Origin: an uncultured Candidatus Saccharibacteria bacterium
GTDB taxonomy: Bacteria; Patescibacteriota; Minisyncoccia; Phycocordibacterales; UBA5272
Assembly: GCA_964512315.1 (NCBI GenBank)
Contig: CAZEIK010000003.1
Span: 22,548 to 86,547 of the forward strand
Length of the DNA stretch: 64,000 nt
Direction of reading: 5' to 3'
The notes under the pieces were generated by a model that worked only from the letters and a program-made list of their open reading frames with translations, was not told the DNA's origin and ran no database searches. This document shows positions 4,273 through 64,000 of the stretch, in pieces (position 1 is the stretch's first letter; each line of letters opens with the position of its first letter). Made by a program: the position numbers and the translations under genes.

Positions 4273-4866
4273 TTAACAATTAAGAAATCCAGCAACTAAT
4301 TCTGATTTTGCCTCTTCCTCGCTGAATCCATGTAACTTGGCATAAAAGACCTTTTCTTCATTTACACCACCTATTGATACCGCATGCGTAGTTGGGAATG
4401 TGTCGCTCTCAATATCAAGACTTGGCTCGGCATCTATTTCTGATGTGTTGTCTAATATAATAAATTTAGCTGATTGCTTGCCTTCACCTGTTGAGTCTTG
4501 TTTTGCTGCCAGTGAGCTGCGATATATTATTCTGCCTCCATTTTCTGCTACTCCACGAGATTCGATATGGCTACTAACATTTTTATTATTTGAAATGATT
4601 TGATGATATACATCACCCACTTCACCGCTTCCCATTTTTCCTGTAGCTTTGATTTTTATCTCTATGTCACTAGCTTCTGATTCGCAAACAATAGATACTA
4701 AGCCGTTAACAATATTGTGATGCACATATGTGTCATCGTTACAGAAAATACGATACCTGCCAGGGTCGGTTATTACTATGTCTCCATTGCCACGAATTAT
4801 CTTTTCTTCTTGTGTGGCATAAGGACTTTCAACTTTTAATCCATACTTTTGCATTATTATTGACAT
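4273..4866 (-). CDS. sufD: SufD-like protein, C-terminal half only (SufBD beta-helix and C-terminal helices).
   Basis: 197 aa. Ends with the SufB/D family C-terminus (FYAKLHGFSEEEAKSELVAGF). A stop codon lies immediately upstream in frame. Confidence 0.7.
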   Translation of the reverse strand: MSIIMQKYGLKVESPYATQEEKIIRGNGDIVITDPGRYRIFCNDDTYVHHNIVNGLVSIVCESEASDIEIKIKATGKMGSGEVGDVYHQIISNNKNVSSHIESRGVAENGGRIIYRSSLAAKQDSTGEGKQSAKFIILDNTSEIDAEPSLDIESDTFPTTHAVSIGGVNEEKVFYAKLHGFSEEEAKSELVAGFLNC

Positions 4867-4932
4867 TATAACATACTAGTTGTAGTATTAAAAGTAGGCA
4901 TAGCAACAATCAACCAAGATTGAGGAGTTCTC

Positions 4933-5160
4933 ATGGCTAAAATGTTTTACAGAATTCATCCGGGCACTGTTTTGACTCCCGGGTGTACGCTGTCGCGAAG
5001 CATGCGACCAGACCTTGATGAGACGCTTACATTTGTAGAGCGGTCATTTTTCGATGACGAAGAGCATTACGGCGACCCTTGTTACGTTTGTAAAGATCAC
5101 CTCGGACACACTGAGGCTGTGTCGCAAGAACAAATTCTGAAAATGTACTTCTCTGCTTAG
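4933..5160 (+). CDS. Orphan 75-aa protein in a compositionally foreign cassette (about 50% GC).
   Basis: Strong ribosome-binding site (GAGGAG-N6-ATG) and its own terminator. Opposite strand to the suf genes. No recognisable domain. Confidence 0.5.
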   Translation: MAKMFYRIHPGTVLTPGCTLSRSMRPDLDETLTFVERSFFDDEEHYGDPCYVCKDHLGHTEAVSQEQILKMYFSA

Positions 5161-5179
5161 TTCTGGCTACACATCCCCG

Positions 5180-5207
5180 AAAGCCACTGCGGTGGCTTTT
5201 TGTTTTG
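5180..5207 (+). terminator. Intrinsic terminator.
   Basis: Hairpin AGCCAC-tgcg-GTGGCT followed by TTTTTGTTTTGG. Confidence 0.7.
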
Positions 5208-5256
5208 GTTTGGTGTAGGATAAAATCTGGCTCAAACTACCAAAAAGGAGACTAAG

Positions 5257-5688
5257 ATGTCATTTGTTTTTGACCCTAGGATTAACCCCACTGCACCACT
5301 GGACCCAAATGACCCAGCACCAACTCACTGGGTCGATATCGAAACCTCAGACTATCGTGCCGCTCTGTTTGGTTTCGCTAGTGAAACCTTCGAAGGGTGT
5401 TCCAGGTGGGAGGTGCGTGAGTTGCGCCGTTGGCGTGCACTAAACCCTAAAACGCTCGAAGGCTTCACTACTAACACACTCTGGGAATCGATACCTGGAA
5501 TGGGTGGTAGCCTGAATAATCTAGAGTTGGTTGATGTCCAACAAGAACCTTTCTATGATGAAGACGGTGCATCTTTGCGCCTGATGCTGTATTTCGTGAC
5601 AAGCGAGTACGGTAAGCTGATCAAGATTCCTGCATTTGGCTTCAGGACGAAGTATCGCGAAAAAGAAAAACCGGATATTGTGTCTTAG
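5257..5688 (+). CDS. Orphan 143-aa protein in the same foreign cassette.
   Basis: Ribosome-binding site AAGGAG-N7-ATG, about 50% GC. Its stop overlaps the sufB stop in convergent orientation. Confidence 0.5.
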   Translation: MSFVFDPRINPTAPLDPNDPAPTHWVDIETSDYRAALFGFASETFEGCSRWEVRELRRWRALNPKTLEGFTTNTLWESIPGMGGSLNNLELVDVQQEPFYDEDGASLRLMLYFVTSEYGKLIKIPAFGFRTKYREKEKPDIVS

Positions 5689-7007
5689 CTCATCTCTAGC
5701 TCGACGAGTCTATTGAACTCGACGGCGTATTCTAGGGGAAGTGCACGGATGATGTCTCCGACGAATCCGCCCACTATGATGCGATAAGCGTTATCCTTGC
5801 TGAATCCGTGCCCCATGAGGTAGTGCAGCTCCTCATCACCTATCTTGCCGACAGTCGCCTCATGTGTGACGTCGGCATTTTTATTTTGTATTTTATTCAT
5901 CGGCCAAGTATTAGATACTGACTTATTATCAAGAATTAGTGCGTCACAACCAACAAATGACTTGGTATTCTCGGCTGACTTACCAACTTGAACAAAGCCG
6001 CGATAATTAGACACCCCACCATCCTTGGACACACTTTTGCTTCTTATTATTGATCTCGTATTTTTACCCAGATGTATTACTTTACTTCCTGTATCTTGAT
6101 CTTGATTCTCTCCTGCGAATACTATACCCATAGACTCACTACGACTGTAGTCGCCAAGTAGTACTGATGTTGGATATAACATAGTCACAGCAGACCCCAT
6201 GTTACCGTTCACCCAATTGATCTCACCATTTTTATAGACCAAAGCCTTCTTGGTGTTGAGGTTATAAGTGTTCTTGCTCCAATTCTCAACGCTGATGTAT
6301 TTTGCTTTTGCATTTTCCATTACTATAACTTCAACGCATCCAGCGTGTAGGCTACTAGCTGTGTATTTTGGTGCACTGCAACCTTCTATGTATTCAACAG
6401 TTGCGCCATTTTCTACAATTATCAAAGTGTGTTCAAATTGTCCTGCACTAGGAGCATTCATGCGAAAGTAGGCTTGTAACGGCATTGTAACTTTTACACC
6501 CTCTGGAACATATATAAAAGTCCCACCACTCCATACAGCGCCATGCAATGCTGTAAAAGTGTGATCCTTGGCTGGCACACAGTCAGTCATGAAATATTTC
6601 TTAACCAGGTCAGGATACTTTTGTACAGCCACATCCATGTTCTCAAATATAACTCCTTGCTTAGCTAATGTGTCTTTGATTCTGTGATATACAACACCTG
6701 AGTCATACTGCGCACCTACACCACCCAGGTACTCCCTTTCAGCTTTTGGTATACCAAGCTTTTCAAATGTATCAGTTATCTCTTGGGGCAGCTCTGCCCA
6801 ACTTTTCTTTTCGTCTACAGACGGGTCAATGTAATAGTTAATTTTGTCTAATTCTAATTTAGATAGATCCGGCCCCCAAGTGGGAATTTTGGAAGACTCA
6901 AAAATAGCAAGAGCCTCTAATCTCTTTTGTAGCATCCACTCAGGCTCATTTTTTGAAGTGCTGATTTTCCTTACTAGCTCCTCAGTGATAATTCCTTTTA
7001 AAGGCAT
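5685..7007 (-). CDS. sufB: Fe-S cluster assembly protein SufB.
   Basis: 440 aa with high similarity to SufB along its full length. The 3' about 200 nt are unusually GC-rich (about 55%). Confidence 0.9.
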   Translation of the reverse strand: MPLKGIITEELVRKISTSKNEPEWMLQKRLEALAIFESSKIPTWGPDLSKLELDKINYYIDPSVDEKKSWAELPQEITDTFEKLGIPKAEREYLGGVGAQYDSGVVYHRIKDTLAKQGVIFENMDVAVQKYPDLVKKYFMTDCVPAKDHTFTALHGAVWSGGTFIYVPEGVKVTMPLQAYFRMNAPSAGQFEHTLIIVENGATVEYIEGCSAPKYTASSLHAGCVEVIVMENAKAKYISVENWSKNTYNLNTKKALVYKNGEINWVNGNMGSAVTMLYPTSVLLGDYSRSESMGIVFAGENQDQDTGSKVIHLGKNTRSIIRSKSVSKDGGVSNYRGFVQVGKSAENTKSFVGCDALILDNKSVSNTWPMNKIQNKNADVTHEATVGKIGDEELHYLMGHGFSKDNAYRIIVGGFVGDIIRALPLEYAVEFNRLVELEMS

Positions 7008-7485: not shown

Positions 7486-7589
7486 CTTTAATTATATCAA
7501 ATATTAAAACTTTTATTTTTCGTGTTTTTCTGTTAGAGTTTTAGAGGAAATGGGCAATCCCGCCCAAGATACATAAAGAGGTAGTGTAA

Positions 7590-7952
7590 ATGAGTGATAG
7601 TCCTATCGACTATGTAGGCACTGTATTGCGTGCCAAAAGAGATGAAAATTCCCCCTGGGGTGTGCTATCTGGTACAACCCGCTACGGGCAACGCACGTTG
7701 ATCGAACCACAACAAGGTGGCTCTTACCTAATCATCGAGTGGCAAAACCACAGCTGGGAGACAAACGTCCTCAGCTCAGAAGATGAAGAAGTCATGCGGC
7801 TGCCAGAAGTCAGAATGGCTTTGCACTTGATTGCTACCGGTTACCAACATGTTCCTGCGGTAAAAGCTGGCGTGCACGCGATGTACACGAAACTTTCATG
7901 GATGAGAAACCAGTTCATTCCAAACGAAAACTGGCAGACAGCGAACTCGTAA
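7590..7952 (+). CDS. Orphan 120-aa protein in a compositionally foreign cassette.
   Basis: About 50% GC in a 35% GC background. Ribosome-binding site AGAGG. Followed by an intrinsic terminator. Confidence 0.5.
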   Translation: MSDSPIDYVGTVLRAKRDENSPWGVLSGTTRYGQRTLIEPQQGGSYLIIEWQNHSWETNVLSSEDEEVMRLPEVRMALHLIATGYQHVPAVKAGVHAMYTKLSWMRNQFIPNENWQTANS

Positions 7953-7973
7953 AGCTTCGCTGCCCGAGAAGAA

Positions 7974-8001
7974 GGTGCTCATCTGGAGCACCTTTTGTTT
8001 T
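7974..8001 (+). terminator. Intrinsic terminator.
   Basis: Hairpin GGTGCTC-atctg-GAGCACC followed by TTTTGTTTTG. Confidence 0.75.
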
Positions 8002-8020
8002 GTCTCAATATTCAAATTAA

Positions 8021-12130: not shown

Positions 12131-13168
12131 TTAAGCAAGTGAATAAAGTCCAGCTTGGTTCTTCTTGAAGAATTTAGAATTCTGAAGATTAACAACAATA
12201 GTGTTCGGTTTAACTTCACGCAAAGCTAGAACTTTGTCTATTATGTCTTGTTTAGACATCGGAGAACCCACCTCTTCCATTACAACTTTTATCAAATCAC
12301 GGACAACGCCACCGGTGTGACCCCAGTCTTTCAATCCGTACATACCGCGCCCAACTAGGACAAATCTCTTATCCTTGATAAGTTCATTATGGCAAGTTGC
12401 AACGTGCGCTTTTTTATTAAATGTTGAATTGATCTCTTTGGCAACGTCACGGAAATGCATAGGCTTACCTTCACGACGAAGTATTAAATATGCATAATCC
12501 TTAATACCACGAGCTTTAACAGCAGAACTAGTAACATGGCCCCATTCATTAAGAGGGTTCTTAGCTATAACTTTAGAGATAGATAGATATCTCTTGATAA
12601 CGTCGCGATTATCTTTGTACTCAGAAGCAAGAGCTGATAAGTCTGACACAAAACGAGATACGATTTCTTCTTCTTTTACTAATTCGTCTTTTGTAACATT
12701 CTTGTGCAGATTAGAAAGTGCGGAGTGAACATGCTTAGCCACCTCGTCGTCAACGCTCCATCTGTGGTCAAAATTATCATCTTCTTTGTGTTTCTTGAAC
12801 TTGCCAGAAAGAGTCATGAAGAAGTTAATGTGGTTATGTACAACCTCGTCATTAGAAATATGCTCCATTAATGTCTTCTCAGGAACTATTGATCCTAACA
12901 CTTTGACTATCTCCGCTAACTCCTCGAATACATTTTCTGCCTCTTTGTAGTCTTTTGATTTTTGTATTGATCCTAGTGCAAAATTCTCAATCTGGCGTAC
13001 ACGCTCACGAGTAATACCATACTCACGACCAATAGACTCTAGAGTATTCCTCTCTTTTGATTCTAGTCCGTATCTCTTTGTAATGACTTCTCTAGTGCGC
13101 GGATTAAGAGCATTTAGAAGCTTTTTAGAAACCGCTTTTGGTTTGAAAGTTAATTGTACTGTAGACAT
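12131..13168 (-). CDS. Sigma-70 region-4-like HTH domain protein.
   Basis: N-terminal region matches sigma70 region 4 (LESIGREYGITRERVRQIENFAL). No regions 2 or 3. Confidence 0.5.
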   Translation of the reverse strand: MSTVQLTFKPKAVSKKLLNALNPRTREVITKRYGLESKERNTLESIGREYGITRERVRQIENFALGSIQKSKDYKEAENVFEELAEIVKVLGSIVPEKTLMEHISNDEVVHNHINFFMTLSGKFKKHKEDDNFDHRWSVDDEVAKHVHSALSNLHKNVTKDELVKEEEIVSRFVSDLSALASEYKDNRDVIKRYLSISKVIAKNPLNEWGHVTSSAVKARGIKDYAYLILRREGKPMHFRDVAKEINSTFNKKAHVATCHNELIKDKRFVLVGRGMYGLKDWGHTGGVVRDLIKVVMEEVGSPMSKQDIIDKVLALREVKPNTIVVNLQNSKFFKKNQAGLYSLA

Positions 13169-35710: not shown

Positions 35711-35739
35711 GAAAAAGCCCGCTCGGGAGAAGGCTTTTT
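35711..35739. terminator. Intrinsic terminator (reads on both strands).
   Basis: aaaaagcc-cgctcgggagaa-ggcttttt. Confidence 0.6.
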
Positions 35740-35756
35740 ACTGGACCCAGAGATGG

Positions 35757-36302
35757 TTAACGTTTTACGAGATTGTCCTTCAGTGGTGGATGATCGTCAG
35801 CAAGGCGTCCGTTAAGTTCCTTATGACAACTAAGACATGTGTACATGAGTCGAGCATTTCCCCAGCAATTAGTTAATGTTTTCTTCTCTTGCAGACCATC
35901 GACACATGGCTTGTGATGACAGGGCTTAGTTTTGTCGAGTTCAAAACTTGGTCCATGACATGTCCACCAAGCAATATGACCATTCTTTGGCCAAAGTTGC
36001 TCGAGCAGTTGCTCAATTGTTGGTTCTGGCATGCCACCTTCCAACTTTTCTAACTGACTCAAGTCCAAACCCTCAACTACAAGGTATTCATCTTTTTGTT
36101 TTGTCCACCCATGAAATACAAAATCTGAAACGGTGTGGGCATTGCACAAAACTCTTGGGAAGTTTACAGTTGCCAAACCTTTCCGAGTAATAGCAACGAT
36201 AACCCCTGGCGTACCGTCATCACCCATATACGTATCTGGAGTAACAACTTTTACGACATCACCAACCTTAAGGTCAGCGCGAACAGTGACTTGATTGCTC
36301 AT
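35757..36302 (-). CDS. Orphan 181-aa Cys/His-rich protein in a compositionally foreign cassette (about 52% GC).
   Basis: Ribosome-binding site ACGGAG. C-terminus contains CxxCH (CLSCH), CHGP and CHHKPC motifs. Followed by its own terminator. Confidence 0.5.
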   Translation of the reverse strand: MSNQVTVRADLKVGDVVKVVTPDTYMGDDGTPGVIVAITRKGLATVNFPRVLCNAHTVSDFVFHGWTKQKDEYLVVEGLDLSQLEKLEGGMPEPTIEQLLEQLWPKNGHIAWWTCHGPSFELDKTKPCHHKPCVDGLQEKKTLTNCWGNARLMYTCLSCHKELNGRLADDHPPLKDNLVKR

Positions 36303-36366
36303 AGCAACACTCCGTTTGTTGATCTAAACAAAAACTACTCTTTATGTAAGAAATTGTCAACAAAAG

Positions 36367-38271
36367 TTAATCTATAAGTTTGTAGTCGAGCTGGCGCATC
36401 TCAAGGTCAGCCTGCTTAACCTCAATCCTTACAATATCACCAATTCTCCACTCTTTACCCTCACGCTCACCGAATACACGCTGCCTCTTCTCATCATAAA
36501 CATAAAAGTCATTACCCAGGTCACGAAGTCTTATCATACCTTCACATTTAGACTTCTTCTCTTCTACAAAGATACCCCATTTTGCAACACCTGAGACCAC
36601 TCCTTCGAATACTTGACCAACTCTCTCAGACATATACTCTACTTGCTTATACTTGATACTACCACGCTCAGCATCTGCCGCCTCCTTCTCACGAAGGCTA
36701 GCATGTAGACACAGCTTCTCAAGTGCAGATCTCTCTTCCTCTTGTGGCATATCACTATGCAGCACCCTGTCTAACAATCTGTGAGTTAGAACGTCTGGGT
36801 AACGACGAATTGGTGAAGTAAAGTGTGAATAATATTCAAAAGCTAATCCATAATGCCCAACATTATCAGTGCTGTACACCGCCTTCTGCATGCTGCGAGT
36901 TATGTTTGTTTGGAGCAAGTCCTTCTCAGGTCTACCTTCTACTTTTTTAAGAAGATCGTTAAGATCTTGTGAAGGTATAACCCCGTCAGTGAATCTAACT
37001 GTATAACCCAGAGCTTTGATGAATAAATTAAGATCATGCATCTTCTCAGCATCAGGCTTATCATGAATACGATAAATACAAATTGGCTTTTTCAACTTCT
37101 GACTCTTGGTTATAAACTCTGAGACTTTGCGATTAGCTAATAGCATCAGCTCCTCTATCATCTTATGAGTGTCACCACGGACTTTGATATATACATCAAC
37201 TGGCTTACCATTCTCATCTAACTTGAACTTAACCTCTTCACTGTCTAATGACAATGCACCATTCTCGAATCGGGCTTTGGTCATTTTCTTAGCTATATTA
37301 TTCAAAATATGCAGCTCCTCGCTGTGTAGCCCATTACTATCCATTGACTCCTGAGCGTTCTCATAAGTGAACCTTTTGGCACTATTAATAACCGAGCGAC
37401 CATACCACTCTTCATAAATATTACAATCATCATCAATTGTAAAAACAGCACTCATAACTAGTCTATCTTTTCCTTCCACAAGACTACATAGATCATTAGA
37501 AAGCTCCTCAGGTAACATCGGTATACATCTGTCCACCAAGTAGACACTAGTCTCGCGCTCAATAGCCTCTTCGTCTAAGTGAGTACCAGGCTTAACATAA
37601 TAACTAACGTCTGCAATGTGTATACCGACTTCGTATTTGCCATCACCTAGATTCTTAAATGATATAGCATCATCAAAATCCTTAGCGTCAGCCGGGTCAA
37701 TTGTAAATGTTAATGTATTTCTAAAGTCTCTTCTGCCTACTATGTCAGTCTCAGTTATCCCTCTCTCTTGCAGAGCATGCGCCTCTTTTGCAACTTCTAC
37801 TTTATGTTCATCGCTGAATCCGCGCTCAAGAGCATAAGCCAGCATCTCTGCATTATTCTCACCAGGACGACCCAACACCTTGACTACGCGACCCCATGGC
37901 ATCTCACGAGCATTCTGCCACTCTATTATCTCAACTGCCACTTTCATACCAGGCTCAGCATCCATAGCCGCATCCTTTTTAACTAGAATGTTAGTGTATG
38001 TCTTTTTATCATGAGGAACTAAGACATATACACCTTTCTCCTCTTTGAGTATACCGGCGTGAGCATGCTTGCCTCTGGACTCGATACTAAGTATCTTGCC
38101 GAACATTTGACCATCATCTTGCTTGCCGAGCACCTCAACAGTAACCCTGTCCCCCTGAAGAGCGGTAGCGAGATGTATGCTGCTAACGAAAATACTTTGA
38201 TAATCTAGCTCCGGAACACGAACATATGCGTCATTGTCCTTGGTTATCGATACTGTACCTTGATAAGTCAT
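36367..38271 (-). CDS. rnr: Ribonuclease R / RNase II family 3'-5' exoribonuclease.
   Basis: RNB catalytic domain (DxxDxDDA...), C-terminal S1 domain. 634 aa. Confidence 0.9.
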   Translation of the reverse strand: MTYQGTVSITKDNDAYVRVPELDYQSIFVSSIHLATALQGDRVTVEVLGKQDDGQMFGKILSIESRGKHAHAGILKEEKGVYVLVPHDKKTYTNILVKKDAAMDAEPGMKVAVEIIEWQNAREMPWGRVVKVLGRPGENNAEMLAYALERGFSDEHKVEVAKEAHALQERGITETDIVGRRDFRNTLTFTIDPADAKDFDDAISFKNLGDGKYEVGIHIADVSYYVKPGTHLDEEAIERETSVYLVDRCIPMLPEELSNDLCSLVEGKDRLVMSAVFTIDDDCNIYEEWYGRSVINSAKRFTYENAQESMDSNGLHSEELHILNNIAKKMTKARFENGALSLDSEEVKFKLDENGKPVDVYIKVRGDTHKMIEELMLLANRKVSEFITKSQKLKKPICIYRIHDKPDAEKMHDLNLFIKALGYTVRFTDGVIPSQDLNDLLKKVEGRPEKDLLQTNITRSMQKAVYSTDNVGHYGLAFEYYSHFTSPIRRYPDVLTHRLLDRVLHSDMPQEEERSALEKLCLHASLREKEAADAERGSIKYKQVEYMSERVGQVFEGVVSGVAKWGIFVEEKKSKCEGMIRLRDLGNDFYVYDEKRQRVFGEREGKEWRIGDIVRIEVKQADLEMRQLDYKLID

Positions 38272-45894: not shown

Positions 45895-45948
45895 TTGACA
45901 ATATTCAAATAAAAAAGTATTATTAGAGTCAGAAAGGAGGGCCTAACT

Positions 45949-46191
45949 ATGCCCCGTACTACCGTAACAAACGAACAGGTTCGAGGTTTTGTAAGCGCAA
46001 TCAACCGGGTTAATCCGAATGTACCGCAAGAAAAAGCGGTCCACCGGATCACCCTTATTGTCAGGAGGGTCCCAAGTTACCTGCTCAAGAGTTTCTTGCA
46101 TGCAGGTATCCCGGCCATCAAAGTTCAAGCGTACGCAACAACGGCCGAAATCATGGCCCAAATGCGAACAGACGCAGTAACGCTCCACTAA
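45949..46191 (+). CDS. Orphan 80-aa protein in a compositionally foreign cassette.
   Basis: Upstream TTGACA-17nt-TATTAT promoter-like element, ribosome-binding site AAAGGAGGG. About 50% GC. The terminator hairpin is embedded in the 3' end of dnaX. Confidence 0.5.
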   Translation: MPRTTVTNEQVRGFVSAINRVNPNVPQEKAVHRITLIVRRVPSYLLKSFLHAGIPAIKVQAYATTAEIMAQMRTDAVTLH

Positions 46192-47165
46192 CCCTCGATC
46201 ACCGCTCCTAACGCCGCCATCAGTGCGGCGTTCTTGTTTTTAGAATATTCAAAAACTGGCTTCTTCTCTAAAAGGAATAACAAATTCTTAGAAGTAAATA
46301 CCGCCTCATGCGCCATAACAAAATCTGAGAATTCAATATCTTCTTCCCCGCTTACCTTTTGCCTTATTAACATACCCTTACGTATAGCTTCTAGCATCTC
46401 ATCATAGAAGCCCGCTCCAACTTCGGCTTTGTCTATATCAGAAAAAAGCTTCTTAATATCTTTGTTATGGACATCTGCCAGGAGATTGTTAATCACTTCT
46501 CTGTCGCCCAAGCGGAACAAACTCTTAATGTCTTCGTATTTAATATTATTACCCAAAGTGTGAAAGACTGTCTCTAGGTTAGACAATGCATCGCGATATG
46601 AGTTGTTACTTTTGCTTGCTAACAAGTCAGCTGACTCATCATCAATTTTAATACCTTCACCTTTTGCTACTTTTAATATTTGTTCAACAAGTGTGTCGCG
46701 GGTGGCTTTTTTGAATTCTATTATCTGAGAGCGCGAGCGAATAGTTGGCAGCAACTTGTCAGCATCAGTAGTACAAAGTATAAAAATAATATGCTTAGGC
46801 GGCTCCTCCAAAGTCTTAAGCAATGCATTGCTGGCCTCCTTGGTTAACATGTGTGCCTCGTCTAATATGTAGACTTTGTATTTTGAATACACCGGCAGCG
46901 TGTGTATTGCTTCACGCAAATCACGAGCCTCATCTATGCCACGATTACTCGCAGCGTCCAATTCAAAAACATCAGCCGGATCAGTACCTAACTCACGAGC
47001 GAACAATCTAGCTAATGTGGTCTTACCTATACCATGCCCACCGCAAAATATATAAGAGTGAGGGATATTTTCTGTTTTACTTATTGAAAGTAGTGTTGCA
47101 ACCGCTGCTTTTTGCCCTATGACTTCGTCAAAGCTATTCGGTCTCCATTTTCGATAAAAACTCAT
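46188..47165 (-). CDS. dnaX: DNA polymerase III subunit gamma/tau, short form.
   Basis: RPNSFDEVIGQ, Walker A GGHGIGKTT, DEAH box. The C-terminal 14 aa are encoded by the GC-rich hairpin sequence. Confidence 0.8.
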   Translation of the reverse strand: MSFYRKWRPNSFDEVIGQKAAVATLLSISKTENIPHSYIFCGGHGIGKTTLARLFARELGTDPADVFELDAASNRGIDEARDLREAIHTLPVYSKYKVYILDEAHMLTKEASNALLKTLEEPPKHIIFILCTTDADKLLPTIRSRSQIIEFKKATRDTLVEQILKVAKGEGIKIDDESADLLASKSNNSYRDALSNLETVFHTLGNNIKYEDIKSLFRLGDREVINNLLADVHNKDIKKLFSDIDKAEVGAGFYDEMLEAIRKGMLIRQKVSGEEDIEFSDFVMAHEAVFTSKNLLFLLEKKPVFEYSKNKNAALMAALGAVIEG

Positions 47166-57144: not shown

Positions 57145-58074
57145 ATGTTCAACAAACTTTTAGATAAATTAAGTAACGAAAAAACTCTATTTATAAATCT
57201 ATTTACAATTAATTTTGTTATATCTGTTTTGATTTTTTGTTTCTTTTTATTTTCTTATATGTTTGCTTCTGAAACCATACTAAAAGGTCTTAGTATTGGT
57301 AATTCAATTAGTATTTGGGACAGGTTTTTAGCGATACCTCTTATATCTGAAACAATAATAGGGACAATTTCCACTGTATTACATTTTGGTTTTAGTGCAT
57401 CAACTGTCAATTTAATATTAGTAGTGATTTGTTTTGTTTTTATAGTTTCCAGAAGCTTAATAATGACACTTTTTAATATTTTTGTATTCAAAGCAACAAA
57501 AAGCAAAAAGGTTCTACTTGCCGTGCTCCTAATTCCATACTTAATACAAATTACAAGTATGGCTTTTATATACAGAACACCGGAATATAAAAATTTTACA
57601 AATAAAGATTACAATGAAAAAGAAACAGCCAAACTAAATATAGAATATTCAGAAAATTATTCTAATAATAAATTTGAAAAATATATTAACTCTAATGGTT
57701 GTGACGAAGAGTATAATGACCCAAACAATACGTGGAGAGTTAATATCGACGAATGTGAAAGGCGTTCGATAAAAGAATACCTTGCCCAAAAGTATTATGT
57801 TAATAGTTTAAATCAACAAGAAACTGAGGAAAGTATTTTTAGTAAGTTTTTTGATAAATGTACTCAAATAGAAAATACAGTTAAACAAAATAAGTGTTTT
57901 GATGGATTCTTTTTATGGAAAAAGTACAACGACAAGGAATATTACCAATACTTACCGAACGAAAATAGTTCAGAATTCATTAAAAACCTACTAGAATCAA
58001 AAGAAAGTTACTGCTCTTTTGCTTACAAAAATGTAAAAGAAAAGGTTAATGCTTGTATAAAAAGACTACCTTAA
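57145..58074 (+). CDS. Hypothetical membrane protein with a Cys-containing C-terminal domain. Very AT-rich (about 25% GC).
   Basis: 309 aa ORF, 4-5 TM helices. Confidence 0.45.
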   Translation: MFNKLLDKLSNEKTLFINLFTINFVISVLIFCFFLFSYMFASETILKGLSIGNSISIWDRFLAIPLISETIIGTISTVLHFGFSASTVNLILVVICFVFIVSRSLIMTLFNIFVFKATKSKKVLLAVLLIPYLIQITSMAFIYRTPEYKNFTNKDYNEKETAKLNIEYSENYSNNKFEKYINSNGCDEEYNDPNNTWRVNIDECERRSIKEYLAQKYYVNSLNQQETEESIFSKFFDKCTQIENTVKQNKCFDGFFLWKKYNDKEYYQYLPNENSSEFIKNLLESKESYCSFAYKNVKEKVNACIKRLP

Positions 58075-62097: not shown

Positions 62098-62233
62098 ATT
62101 TAGATTGTAGCATTAAAAATTGCTAATATAACTAGTTTAAATATTTGACACCTATAAAAGTAAGTTGTATAGTGATATTTAAATTTTGAGTTCGCTCAAA
62201 ACAGATCTTTCAACCACCCGAGGAGATACGTTA

Positions 62234-62956
62234 ATGTCACAAGTATTTCAAGCTACGAGTCCGACGCACAACACCAACCCAAAAGACCTGCTAAATGCAG
62301 AGATCGGGGAAACTTTCAAGATTGCCTTAAGGAAAAAAGAAGGTAATCGCAACTATTCGGGTTACATCATGCTCGAAGTCATACTCGTGGACGGTAGTCC
62401 TGCCGTAAAGGTTACCGACTCCACTTTCGAGCCAATTCAACTTCAAGACTACCATCGGCTACATTTATGGATAAGCCACCTGAAATTTAAAAAGTTCCAT
62501 CACGCAAGAGGCCAAAAAGGTCAGCTACTCTCTGAACTTTTCAATGCCCTACTTTGGGCCACATCGAGCGACTACATACCTCCACAAACTCCCAAAAACA
62601 GGGAACCACATCTCAGGCTCGTGGTTCCTCAACCGAGACCAGCTGCTATACAGCTGGGAGAAGAGAAGGTTGTACCAATTACTGAAGACTTCGTCTTTGG
62701 GAAACTCAAGCCCAATCAATTCATCCTTGGTAGTGGCAAAGTCGCAGGCCGCAACTACGTTCTCTTGCGGAAGCATAATGATGGCTACGGGGTCATGATG
62801 ACACTCGTCAGAACAGACATCGAATGTCTTGCCGGACTTATCAACACAAAAGACGGCGAGGTCAGCATGTCCGACATACGCAACAACAAAGGCCAATTTG
62901 GTGGCTGGCTTTATGACATGCTCCCGCTTATTGGCAAATTCAAATGGAGAACATAA
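62234..62956 (+). CDS. Orphan about 240-aa protein in a compositionally foreign cassette.
   Basis: Ribosome-binding site GAGGAG before the internal ATG 62234. About 50% GC. Strong terminator. Abuts the tRNA-Leu 3' end. Confidence 0.5.
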   Translation: MSQVFQATSPTHNTNPKDLLNAEIGETFKIALRKKEGNRNYSGYIMLEVILVDGSPAVKVTDSTFEPIQLQDYHRLHLWISHLKFKKFHHARGQKGQLLSELFNALLWATSSDYIPPQTPKNREPHLRLVVPQPRPAAIQLGEEKVVPITEDFVFGKLKPNQFILGSGKVAGRNYVLLRKHNDGYGVMMTLVRTDIECLAGLINTKDGEVSMSDIRNNKGQFGGWLYDMLPLIGKFKWRT

Positions 62957-62975
62957 GGAAAGGAGGATCCCAAAC

Positions 62976-63007
62976 CAAAAAGCCGCTCTCGCGGCTTTTT
63001 TTATTTT
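62976..63007 (+). terminator. Intrinsic terminator.
   Basis: aaaaagccgc-tctc-gcggcttttttt. Confidence 0.8.
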
Positions 63008-63008
63008 G

Positions 63009-63128: not shown

Positions 63129-63147
63129 ACTTCTAGTGCCCCCAGTA
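63129..63147 (-). repeat. 19-nt copy of the tRNA-Lys 3' end (T-loop / acceptor 3' strand). att-site-like direct repeat.
   Basis: gtgcccccagtaggattcg is identical to 63264-63282. Confidence 0.7.
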
Positions 63148-63265
63148 GGATTCGGTCACAAAACATATTCCGCTAACGCTTCATTGTTTCGCGACCCCGT
63201 ATTCGGATCCTAACAAAAAGATATTTCGATATCTTTTTTCTGTGTTCACAATTTTTACAAAATTG

Positions 63266-63338
63266 TGCCCCCAGTAGGATTCGAACCTACGACCGTCTCC
63301 TTAAGAGGGAGCTGCTCTACCAACTGAGCTATGAAGGC
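63266..63338 (-). tRNA. tRNA-Lys(CUU).
   Basis: GCCTTCATAGCTCAGTTGGTAGAGC..., anticodon loop CTCTTAA, T-loop TTCGAATCC. Confidence 0.8.
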
Positions 63339-63414
63339 AATTAAAAAATATATTAACACACAAAATACTTTTTGAAAATACGCAAAACAAAAGGCCGGAT
63401 TTTTAGTCCGGCCC

Positions 63415-63861
63415 TCACGTCGACATCTCACTCTCTTTGCACAACTCCAGTAACTTAATTGCCGGGCGAATACTGATGTAAAGCACACCCTCTTTTGGTT
63501 GATGGCAAAGACAATGGTGGGTTAACTCGAGGAACTTCTCTGCCACGAGTCCCAGAACCGCTTGAGTGAAGAATTTGCGAAAGTTAGGATCCGATGACCC
63601 CTCGTAATGCTGCGAGAAAACTTCGAACAGATTCTGGGAGCAAATGTACCTACCATGAAAGTCGACTTCTACAAATAAGCGAATCAAGCAAGCCTGTATC
63701 TCTTGTACCTCACTAGCTCGATGATCGTCATAAGCCCGGACCTCTTCCTTTAGCTTGTCATGTAGATCAGTAACCGCCCAATTCAAGAAAAGCAGAAAGA
63801 GGAGACAGGGTGTAGTAGTCTCTAGATCAAAAAACTCTAGCACCTCTAAGACCTCCAGCAT
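63415..63861 (-). CDS. Orphan about 149-aa protein in a GC-rich region that extends past the window end.
   Basis: Ribosome-binding site AAGGGAGG-N6-ATG (63861). Terminator hairpin ggccggatttttagtccggcc at 63393-63413. Confidence 0.45.
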   Translation of the reverse strand: MLEVLEVLEFFDLETTTPCLLFLLFLNWAVTDLHDKLKEEVRAYDDHRASEVQEIQACLIRLFVEVDFHGRYICSQNLFEVFSQHYEGSSDPNFRKFFTQAVLGLVAEKFLELTHHCLCHQPKEGVLYISIRPAIKLLELCKESEMST

Positions 63862-64000
63862 AATCTGGCCTCCCTTCAAGAAAAAATAGTTGAACTAATG
63901 GCGCTCAACAACGAGCCCACCGCTTTCTCAAGCTCGAGAATGAGGCCGATAATTGGATATGCGGCCTCGATACGCAGACACACCAGAACCGTGGCGCACA

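Follow-up and report, generated by a model that had tools for sequence, protein, structure and literature searches.

In transformable bacteria, recombination hot spots keep the same core genes as flanks around variable accessory content, and homology-facilitated illegitimate recombination can act at such sites. Phage morons are independent transcription units that spread horizontally and often encode small proteins of unknown function (PMC3594210). T4-like phages, in turn, show shuffling at composite terminator/promoter sequences located between small open reading frames (ORFs), the promoter early stem-loop sequences (PeSLs; PMC2839356, PMC4122927). Here, we describe cassettes of small orphan ORFs (ORFans) lying between the housekeeping genes of an uncultured Candidatus Saccharibacteria bacterium, in a 64-kb stretch of DNA (the window; contig CAZEIK010000003.1, positions 22,548 to 86,547). 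These are probably moron-like ORFan cassettes residing in recombination hot spots, where they would be swapped by homologous or homology-facilitated recombination.

The window has 38.3% GC overall, and its backbone comprises the suf operon, fur, mnmA, dnaK/dnaJ, ribosomal protein genes, rnr, dnaX, ATP synthase genes and a photolyase gene, with the housekeeping genes nearly all on the minus strand. The nearest public genomes are metagenome-assembled genomes labelled Patescibacteria, Saccharibacteria or Paceibacterota, and a contig of a separate assembly in ENA matches the window with 99.9% identity across 12.5 kb. Among the relatives compared, L082 has 94.2% nucleotide identity to the window, L003 belongs to a species with 87% SufB identity and a backbone ~77% identical, and L093 and L096 are genus-level relatives with ~70% protein identity (~70% for the flanking FAD oxidase). 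The cassette set consists of seven ORFs (o75, o143, o120, o181, o80, o240 and o148), and 54 ATG-start ORFs of the window served as the backbone reference set.

Expression signals, composition and coding status of the cassettes

The sharpest feature of the cassettes is the absolute contrast in ribosome-binding sites (RBSs) between them and the housekeeping genes. A GGAG, GAGG or AGGA motif at positions -18 to -4 precedes all seven cassette ORFs and none of the 54 backbone genes (Fisher p = 2e-9), just as an original prediction made from the letters of the window had claimed for GGAGG-type sites, with o181 having a weak GGAG site. No further RBS-bearing intergenic ORF was found in the window besides the seven cassette ORFs. 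Perfect matches to TTGACA-N16-18-TAnnnT occur five times in the window, four of them immediately 5' of o75, o181, o80 and o240. The predicted promoters of o75, o80 and o240 score 10-11 of 12, and the site of o181 is likewise promoter-like by its sequence pattern. Backbone genes are marked by 26 TGnTAnAAT sites, extended -10 boxes lying at most ~20 nt from the start codon; their leaders would accordingly be very short or missing altogether.

A terminator-like hairpin stands downstream of each of o75, o120, o80, o240 and o148. The claim that every cassette is self-terminated therefore holds for these and fails for o143, which has no terminator of its own and ends inside sufB; the hairpin of o181 is weak and was not called by the terminator scan. 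A 12-nt terminator tail, CYTTTTGTTTTG, is common to three cassette terminators (four matches compared with 0.06 expected). Taken together, these patterns support a distinct class of putatively self-contained expression units, each with a promoter, an RBS, an orphan ORF and usually a terminator.

The composition of the cassettes, like their translation signals, differs from that of the backbone. The six segments containing them have GC fractions of 0.485 (4930-5880), 0.494 (7590-8000), 0.436 (35757-36302), 0.526 (45949-46235), 0.466 (62234-63008) and 0.477 (from 63393 onwards). All six are thus GC-rich, as had been predicted, and the measured values are 44-53% versus 38% rather than the 50-55% versus ~35% given at the time. 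The GC content at third codon positions (GC3) is 0.47-0.53 in six of the seven cassette ORFs, compared with 0.313 ± 0.057 and a maximum of 0.44 in the backbone; o181 is the only cassette ORF not shifted, with an ordinary GC3 of 0.36.

When ORF lengths were compared with 1000 shuffles, o143, o181, o240 and o148 exceeded expectation (at most 2 in 1000; 0 in 1000 for o181), and o120 was marginal (36 in 1000). The ratio of nonsynonymous to synonymous substitutions (dN/dS) against L082 is 0.09 for o75, from only four differences, and 0.01-0.09 for backbone genes. Against an 86%-identical relative, o240 has a dN/dS of 0.37 and is therefore coding and constrained. The cassette proteins are probably expressed accessory factors under weak to moderate constraint. 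In addition, the junctions between cassettes and backbone were recovered from more than eight samples, in ENA and Logan assemblies made independently of one another.

None of the cassette proteins has a match in Pfam, PHROGs or PADLOC, in agreement with the description of them as orphans lacking a recognisable domain, and sequence searches of the PDB gave no significant match. The same Pfam, PHROGs and PADLOC searches on the slot ORFs of relatives returned nothing usable. No homologue outside its own species was found for any of the seven ORFs. A word-index search recovered o143 only in relatives at least 90% identical and o181 only as itself, and an exhaustive HMMER search recovered one 86% relative of o240, a weak match of o240 to a 2166-aa repeat protein being judged spurious. 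The resulting protein clusters contain one to four members. INPHARED searches and IMG/VR scans revealed no phage or viral relatives of the cassettes, and Rfam detected tRNAs only in the window, with no structured RNA family matched by the cassettes. The AlphaFold2 model of o181 is of poor confidence (predicted local distance difference test score 34).

Slots between core genes and their contents

Four slots have the same flanking core genes and different or absent content, namely sufB/sufD, mnmA/fur, rnr/rpsP and bPH_2/dnaX, referred to below as slots A to D. Judged from the genomes compared, the slots are old and what they contain turns over, and the promoter and terminator scaffolds show better conservation than the ORFs they enclose.

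In slot A, a promoter-like site (TTGACA-17-TAGTAT; 4860-4888, plus strand) overlaps the start codon of the sufD-like gene and belongs to o75 (75 aa; 4933-5160, plus strand; RBS GAGGAG, GC3 0.47). A terminator and promoter-like module, GCCAC..GTGGCTTTTTGTTTTGGTTT..TGTAGGATAAAA (5179-5235, plus strand), lies between o75 and o143 (143 aa; 5257-5688, plus strand; RBS AAGGAG, GC3 0.48), and the stop codon of o143 overlaps that of sufB. The o75-o143 cassette is also found in L082-84 and L111-112. In L003, the slot contains two unrelated RBS-bearing convergent ORFs arranged as in the window, and the module is kept between them with 46 of 50 nt identical, compared with ~77% identity in the backbone. 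In L005, it holds 3.1 kb of RBS-bearing ORFs, while in L002 it is empty, sufB and the sufD-like gene lying too close together for an ORF to fit. The slot A cassette falls within the lowest 1% of divergence windows between strains.

The 3' tract of sufB beside this cassette (5685-5940, minus strand) shows donor-like codon usage (GC3 0.60-0.65) and encodes an unchanged protein. With a GC3 of 0.65 in its last 60 codons versus 0.36 in the remainder, sufB is the top outlier among 37 genes, which bears out the claim that its 3' end shares the foreign composition; no such 3'-end anomaly is seen in mnmA, rnr or dnaX in the same comparison. Over the last 75 codons of sufB, GC3 is 0.60 in the window, 0.60 in L082 and 0.56 in L003, where a GC-rich cassette is present. 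Elsewhere it is 0.33 in L004, 0.41 in L005 and 0.36 in L002, which has the empty slot and lacks the tract. Such a tract is the expected trace of recombination anchored in the conserved sufB end, which explains it equally well and makes an att site unnecessary.

Slot B has a 5' scaffold consisting of an extended -10 element, TGTTAGAGT, and a leader hairpin (7526-7565, plus strand), which L082 shares at 100% identity and which can still be recognised in L003. It is followed by o120 (120 aa; 7590-7952, plus strand; RBS AGAGGT, GC3 0.53) and by a terminator with the tail CCTTTTGTTTTG (7970-8002, plus strand), which adjoins the mnmA stop codon. In L082, the upstream 40 nt match the window at 100% and the sequence from the terminator onward does so at 97%, and the ORF between these flanks is an unrelated one of 134 aa that has only its final nine residues in common with o120. 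In L003, a third unrelated ORF stands behind a recognisable copy of the promoter and leader. The fur-mnmA interval of L082 additionally carries a CbiA/ParA-like gene, and a YibE_F membrane protein is encoded between fur and sufB. The fur-mnmA interval of this relative also contains a GC-rich 34-codon ORF with an RBS and a terminator (9140-9300 of L082), whose Cys-rich peptide, MFTFANQGKICPVCKTPPTNSGTSCEAGTCAACNG, is possibly RiPP-like (resembling ribosomally synthesized and post-translationally modified peptides) or metal-binding.

Slot C is polymorphic for the presence of its cassette. A 669-nt segment (35711-36379, minus strand) replaces 39 nt of the empty rnr/rpsP site and spans the last four rnr codons, a promoter-like site (TTGACA-17-TAGTTT; 36332-36360, minus strand), the GGAG site, o181 (181 aa, ORFan class; 35757-36302, minus strand) and a weak hairpin with a T-run (about 35715-35745, minus strand). 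The replacement junction is repeat-free. Besides the window, a single further contig (L103) carries o181, whereas the site is empty, with a 67-nt spacer, in nine conspecific contigs with an identical S16 protein. One of the empty contigs comes from a sample whose strain elsewhere matches the window at 99.9%, and the site is also empty in L093 and L096. At least one cassette, that of o181, is a recent insertion. Comparison with related genomes, suggested together with the original prediction as a way of finding empty sites, thus reveals them both at rnr/rpsP and, in L002, at sufB/sufD.

Slot D is composed of a promoter-like site (TTGACA-17-TATTAT, 11 of 12; 45895-45923, plus strand) that is conserved in L093 and L096, o80 (80 aa; 45949-46191, plus strand; RBS AAAGGAGGG, GC3 0.53) and a terminator hairpin (46210-46242, plus strand) embedded in the conserved last codons of dnaX. 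The relatives L093-L096 keep the promoter, the RBS and the embedded terminator around one or two different small convergent ORFs, and the RBS of L096, GAAAGGAGGGC, matches that of the window. By eye and with no pairwise score, the 85-aa ORF of L093 and the 84-aa ORF of L096 look homologous. Homology of o80 to these ORFs, suspected from the RBS region, is unproven, and BLASTP of o80 against L096 gave no alignment.

The C-terminal tail of DnaX, ..AALMAALGAVIEG, is conserved as protein in the genus-level relatives and is therefore native, not foreign. This, together with conservation of the hairpin in the same relatives, contradicts the claim that the last 42 nt of dnaX are foreign. The last ~15 dnaX codons double as a GC-rich hairpin (46195-46245 in the window, about 7070-7112 in L093 and about 7290-7334 in L096) that would serve as the terminator of the convergent slot gene. 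Between the genomes, its stem varies by compensatory substitutions that preserve the peptide ..A(A/I)LGA(V/M/L)(I/V)E(Q)G.

The tRNA region and a gene-less mini-element

The remaining cassettes lie next to tRNA genes, of which the window has four that reach the Rfam gathering score; ARAGORN alone predicts a further one, a tRNA-Pyl within sufB (6823-6900), to which Rfam lends no support. A promoter-like site (TTGACA-17-TATAGT, 11 of 12; 62145-62173, plus strand) precedes o240 (240 aa; 62234-62956, plus strand; RBS GAGGAG, GC3 0.50), whose terminator (62977-63007, plus strand) abuts the 3' end of tRNA-Leu(tag). The o148 cassette (segment 63390-63861, minus strand) adjoins tRNA-Lys on its 5' side, upstream of the tRNA, and consists of o148 (148 aa; 63415-63861; RBS GGGAGG, GC3 0.52) and a terminator with the tail CCTTTTGTTTTG (63416-63390). 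A possible 65-aa ORF begins at 63898, on the plus strand, and runs past the window end at 64000; no RBS precedes it, and whether it is coding is uncertain.

Beyond the window end, as seen in L090 (6400-9964), the GC-richer ORFan region continues with tRNA-Leu(taa) and tRNA-Cys interleaved. The ORFs in this part of L090 encode 232 aa, with a weak match to outer membrane protein beta-barrels, and 107, 500 and 57 aa without Pfam families. Within 10 kb past the window end, there are more ORFans, tRNAs, dprA, topA, relA and parB, and the backbone resumes at dprA-topA. One more slot, tRNA-Thr/PGA_cap, has content in L093 and L094 and none in the window.

The tRNA region also contains a gene-less mini-element (63136-63250, minus strand), made up of a terminator, a T-stem-like 5' flank, a hairpin core of 51 nt and a 19-nt duplicate of the 3' end of tRNA-Lys. 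Wherever it occurs, the order is an intact tRNA, one or more terminators, a T-stem-like flank of 4-8 nt, the invariant 51-nt core and a tRNA copy from ~position 57 to the 3' end. The core hairpin has the form GAATACGGGGTCGCGAAACA-loop-TATGTTTTGTGACC and sits within a T-arm-like inverted repeat. The copied part begins in the T-loop, and each copy duplicates the neighbouring tRNA. Together with other contigs and metagenomes, the hosts comprise at least six tRNA species: Lys(ctt), Leu(taa), Leu(tag), Val(tac), Trp(cca), Asp(gtc) and one unidentified tRNA. Copies are located at L090 9624-9730, L097 1017-1160, L099 240-375, L100 3156-3234 and 4248-4326, and L098 78-200. The Leu(taa) copy lies just past the window end, and the Leu(tag) copy is present in L097 and absent from the window, so that the mini-element is polymorphic. 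In 91%-identical L097, the tRNA-Lys(ctt) segment (63236-63380 of the window, 1305-1450 of L097) is inverted, and that tRNA is without the mini-element.

No integrase and no inverted terminal repeats were found for the mini-element, its core has no match in viral contigs, and a covariance model detected no diverged copies in 455 kb of sequence. Islands that target tRNA genes are marked at their two ends by a regenerated intact tRNA and a displaced 3'-end copy (Islander, PMC4383910). The mini-element shares with them the intact tRNA, the displaced 3' copy and the T-loop junction, yet it is only ~90-150 nt long, has neither integrase nor cargo, and uses one invariant 51-nt core at its at least six tRNA species. 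It looks like a miniature, integrase-less element targeting the T-loop, or a remnant resembling a cis-mobilizable element. An integrase-less element with a replacement 3' end thus does exist in the window, at tRNA-Lys, but it is gene-less and was not described by the original prediction.

Two further proteins stand apart from these loci. A 309-aa plus-strand ORF (57145-58074) without a Pfam match shows the reverse anomaly (26% GC, GC3 0.21) and is a second kind of compositionally odd orphan, distinct from the cassettes and not noted in the original prediction. A 345-aa protein (12131-13168) carries both a Sigma70 region 4 domain and a HARE-HTH domain, an architecture unusual for a small-genome bacterium.

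Routes of cassette exchange and relation to known systems

Comparisons between strains are mosaic, as identical blocks alternate with blocks diverged by 6-10%, a pattern that would indicate frequent homologous recombination. Furthermore, dprA adjoins the cassette region. We propose that a limited number of intergenic slots between conserved housekeeping genes could act as recombination hot spots, in which the flanks and the promoter/terminator scaffolds would persist across the genus and the ORF inside would be gained, lost or replaced. DNA from related strains or species would be taken up, and the content of a slot would be exchanged by homologous recombination, with the conserved flanks and scaffolds as anchors. 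First-time insertions may occasionally arise by one-sided, homology-facilitated illegitimate recombination, which would explain both the donor-type 3' tract of sufB and the 39-for-669-nt replacement at rnr/rpsP. The composition and signals of the cassettes suggest that their donors would be GC-richer and RBS-using.

Several observations weigh against this proposal. The recombination and competence on which it draws are ones that we infer from the sequences, a donor genome was found for no cassette, and all seven are ORFans. The GC-richer relatives sampled lack Shine-Dalgarno (SD) motifs in front of their backbone genes and so fail to explain the cassette RBSs, and no long motif is common to the slots, unlike in true PeSLs. 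At the dnaX slot, the low divergence between strains is not specific to the cassette, as the identical block extends well past it; low divergence was consequently dropped as a general sign of recent transfer, being significant at slot A and not specific at dnaX. Finally, the dN/dS of o143 against L082 is ~1, and the lengths of o75 and o80 are not significant against 1000 shuffles, these ORFs being too short for ORF statistics.

The rival explanation closest to the original prediction is one family of integrase-less elements, site-specific for the 3' ends of genes and tRNAs, that bring an att-like replacement 3' end with them. The donor-like tract of sufB beside its cassette, the replacement of the last four rnr codons by the o181 insertion and the occurrence, in the same genome, of a gene-less mini-element duplicating tRNA 3' ends would all fit such a family, which nevertheless seems improbable. 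An all-against-all comparison of cassette flanks gave only matches of at most 15 nt, with no att-like or common repeats, and the 12-nt terminator tail is all that the cassettes have in common. Displaced fragments of sufB, rnr, dnaX or tRNA-Leu were absent from the far cassette ends, the 66-nt gap between o75 and sufD leaving no room for one of sufB, and the window holds no second copy of the tRNA-Leu, tRNA-Thr or tRNA-Gln 3' end. No recombinase was found among the cassette ORFs, the part of the backbone ORFs that was scanned, or the 10 kb past the window end. An incoming element that replaces the 3' end of its target would be in keeping with sufB (tract GC3 0.65, protein unchanged) and with the four replaced rnr codons. 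It does not agree with the native tail of dnaX or with the ordinary 3' composition of mnmA, rnr and dnaX. Cassettes do mostly end at the 3' ends of minus-strand genes, as had been noted, with the exception of the one from 63393 onwards, which lies at the 5' side of tRNA-Lys; such adjacency follows from strand bias, because plus-strand genes are placed in a region that is nearly all minus-strand. Moreover, the slots are conserved across the genus with their scaffolds intact.

That conservation would be expected if the cassettes were native, vertically inherited small genes of a special expression class (-35 promoter and RBS) that evolve past recognisable homology, in the absence of horizontal transfer. 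In favour of this, members of the genus share the slot positions, promoters, RBSs and terminators, the ORFs of L093 and L096 look alike, several genomes have cassettes with the terminator tail CYTTTTGTTTTG, and o143 has a dN/dS of ~1. Vertical inheritance, named with the original prediction as what would speak against insertion, has partial support, as the dnaX slot is conserved, promoter, RBS and embedded terminator included, at ~70% FAD oxidase identity and the sufB and mnmA slots at 87% SufB identity. We still regard purely native genes as unlikely: the mnmA slot ORFs are unalignable and of different length despite 94-97% identical flanks, conspecific strains differ in whether they carry o181, whose replacement junction is sharp, cassette GC3 is three standard deviations over the backbone, and L002 has nothing in slot A. 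GC-rich intergenic islands in AT-rich genomes are also the classic signature of structured non-coding RNAs, for which the insignificant lengths of o75 and o80 and the o80 segment being open on both strands could be cited. However, Rfam finds tRNAs only, the ORFs of 143-240 codons exceed the shuffles, each ORF start has a correctly spaced RBS, and the dN/dS of o240 is 0.37, making this explanation very improbable. Least credible of all is an origin from assembly chimeras or contaminant DNA. Contigs do often break near the tRNA cluster, yet the junctions were assembled independently in ENA and Logan from many runs, and a second species has the same architecture.

Having favoured exchange of moron-like cassettes in hot spots, we return to their RBSs. 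The SD motif is absent from backbone genes, whatever the GC content, in every bacterial Patescibacteria locus sampled, compared with 20-60% SD in the archaeal loci of the set, which comprised the window, L008, L015, L020, L027, L035, L045, L061, L062, L065 and L093-L096. GC-richer relatives, considered as donors of the RBSs, were therefore rejected as a full explanation, their backbone genes being without RBSs too. According to Tsurumaki et al. (PMC9297842), roughly half of the 16S rRNAs of Parcubacteria lack the anti-SD motif. The cassette RBSs are either donor marks from outside the clade or a conserved, separately used signal, and that the window and L096 have GAAAGGAGGGC in common appears to favour the latter.

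It could further be speculated, with little confidence, that the slots are long-lived 'expression sockets' in SD-less Patescibacteria, their scaffolds kept beyond genus-level time and ORFans swapped in by recombination. They would then be functionally an integron without an integrase, with the GGAGG leader forming a separate translation regime and the 51-nt tRNA element being a second, site-specific integrase-less unit; under that speculation, the 16S rRNA of the lineage may lack the anti-SD. Patescibacteria have tiny genomes, and their gene gain is poorly understood. Here, gene novelty gathers in a small number of fixed slots between genes, which carry complete foreign-style expression signals, and their content turns over between strains otherwise 94-99% identical. 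It thereby becomes testable whether these bacteria still read SD signals and, if so, whether a separate regime serves accessory ORFans. The strain-variable proteins are also candidates for taking part in attachment to the host, in immunity or in defence against phages in episymbiotic bacteria.

Compared with described systems, the cassettes resemble morons (PMC3594210) in having their own promoter and usually a terminator, as judged by sequence pattern and with o143 lacking the latter. They also share the odd composition, unlike that of flanking genes in six of seven ORFs (o181 excepted), and the position between conserved backbone genes. Morons reside in phages or prophages, whereas the cassettes lie between suf, fur, mnmA, rnr, rpsP, dnaX, photolyase and tRNA genes of a cellular chromosome, and no phage gene, PHROG or viral-contig match points to a prophage location. 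As with PeSLs (PMC2839356, PMC4122927), terminator/promoter scaffolds are kept around unrelated ORFs in slots A, B and D and are possible exchange points, and T4-like phages carrying PeSLs likewise have variable ORFans among core genes. There, however, one motif is repeated many times per phage genome, while here each slot has its own scaffold, only the 12-nt tail is common, and the host is a cellular genome of the candidate phyla radiation (CPR) instead of a phage.

Integron cassettes are similarly small, mostly orphan single-gene units with high turnover; the cassettes described here differ from them in having no attC-like common repeat and no array, in carrying their own promoters and in being scattered, with no intI among the ORFs scanned. 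Core-flanked hot spots share with the slots the fixed flanks, the variable content, a donor-type tract contiguous with foreign DNA, as in sufB, and a repeat-free other junction. The cassettes depart from these hot spots in that the units, of one or two ORFs each, are unusually small and bear expression signals absent elsewhere in the genome. The phenomenon is thus a variant of morons, PeSL-type shuffling and core-flanked hot spots, found here in a CPR chromosome.

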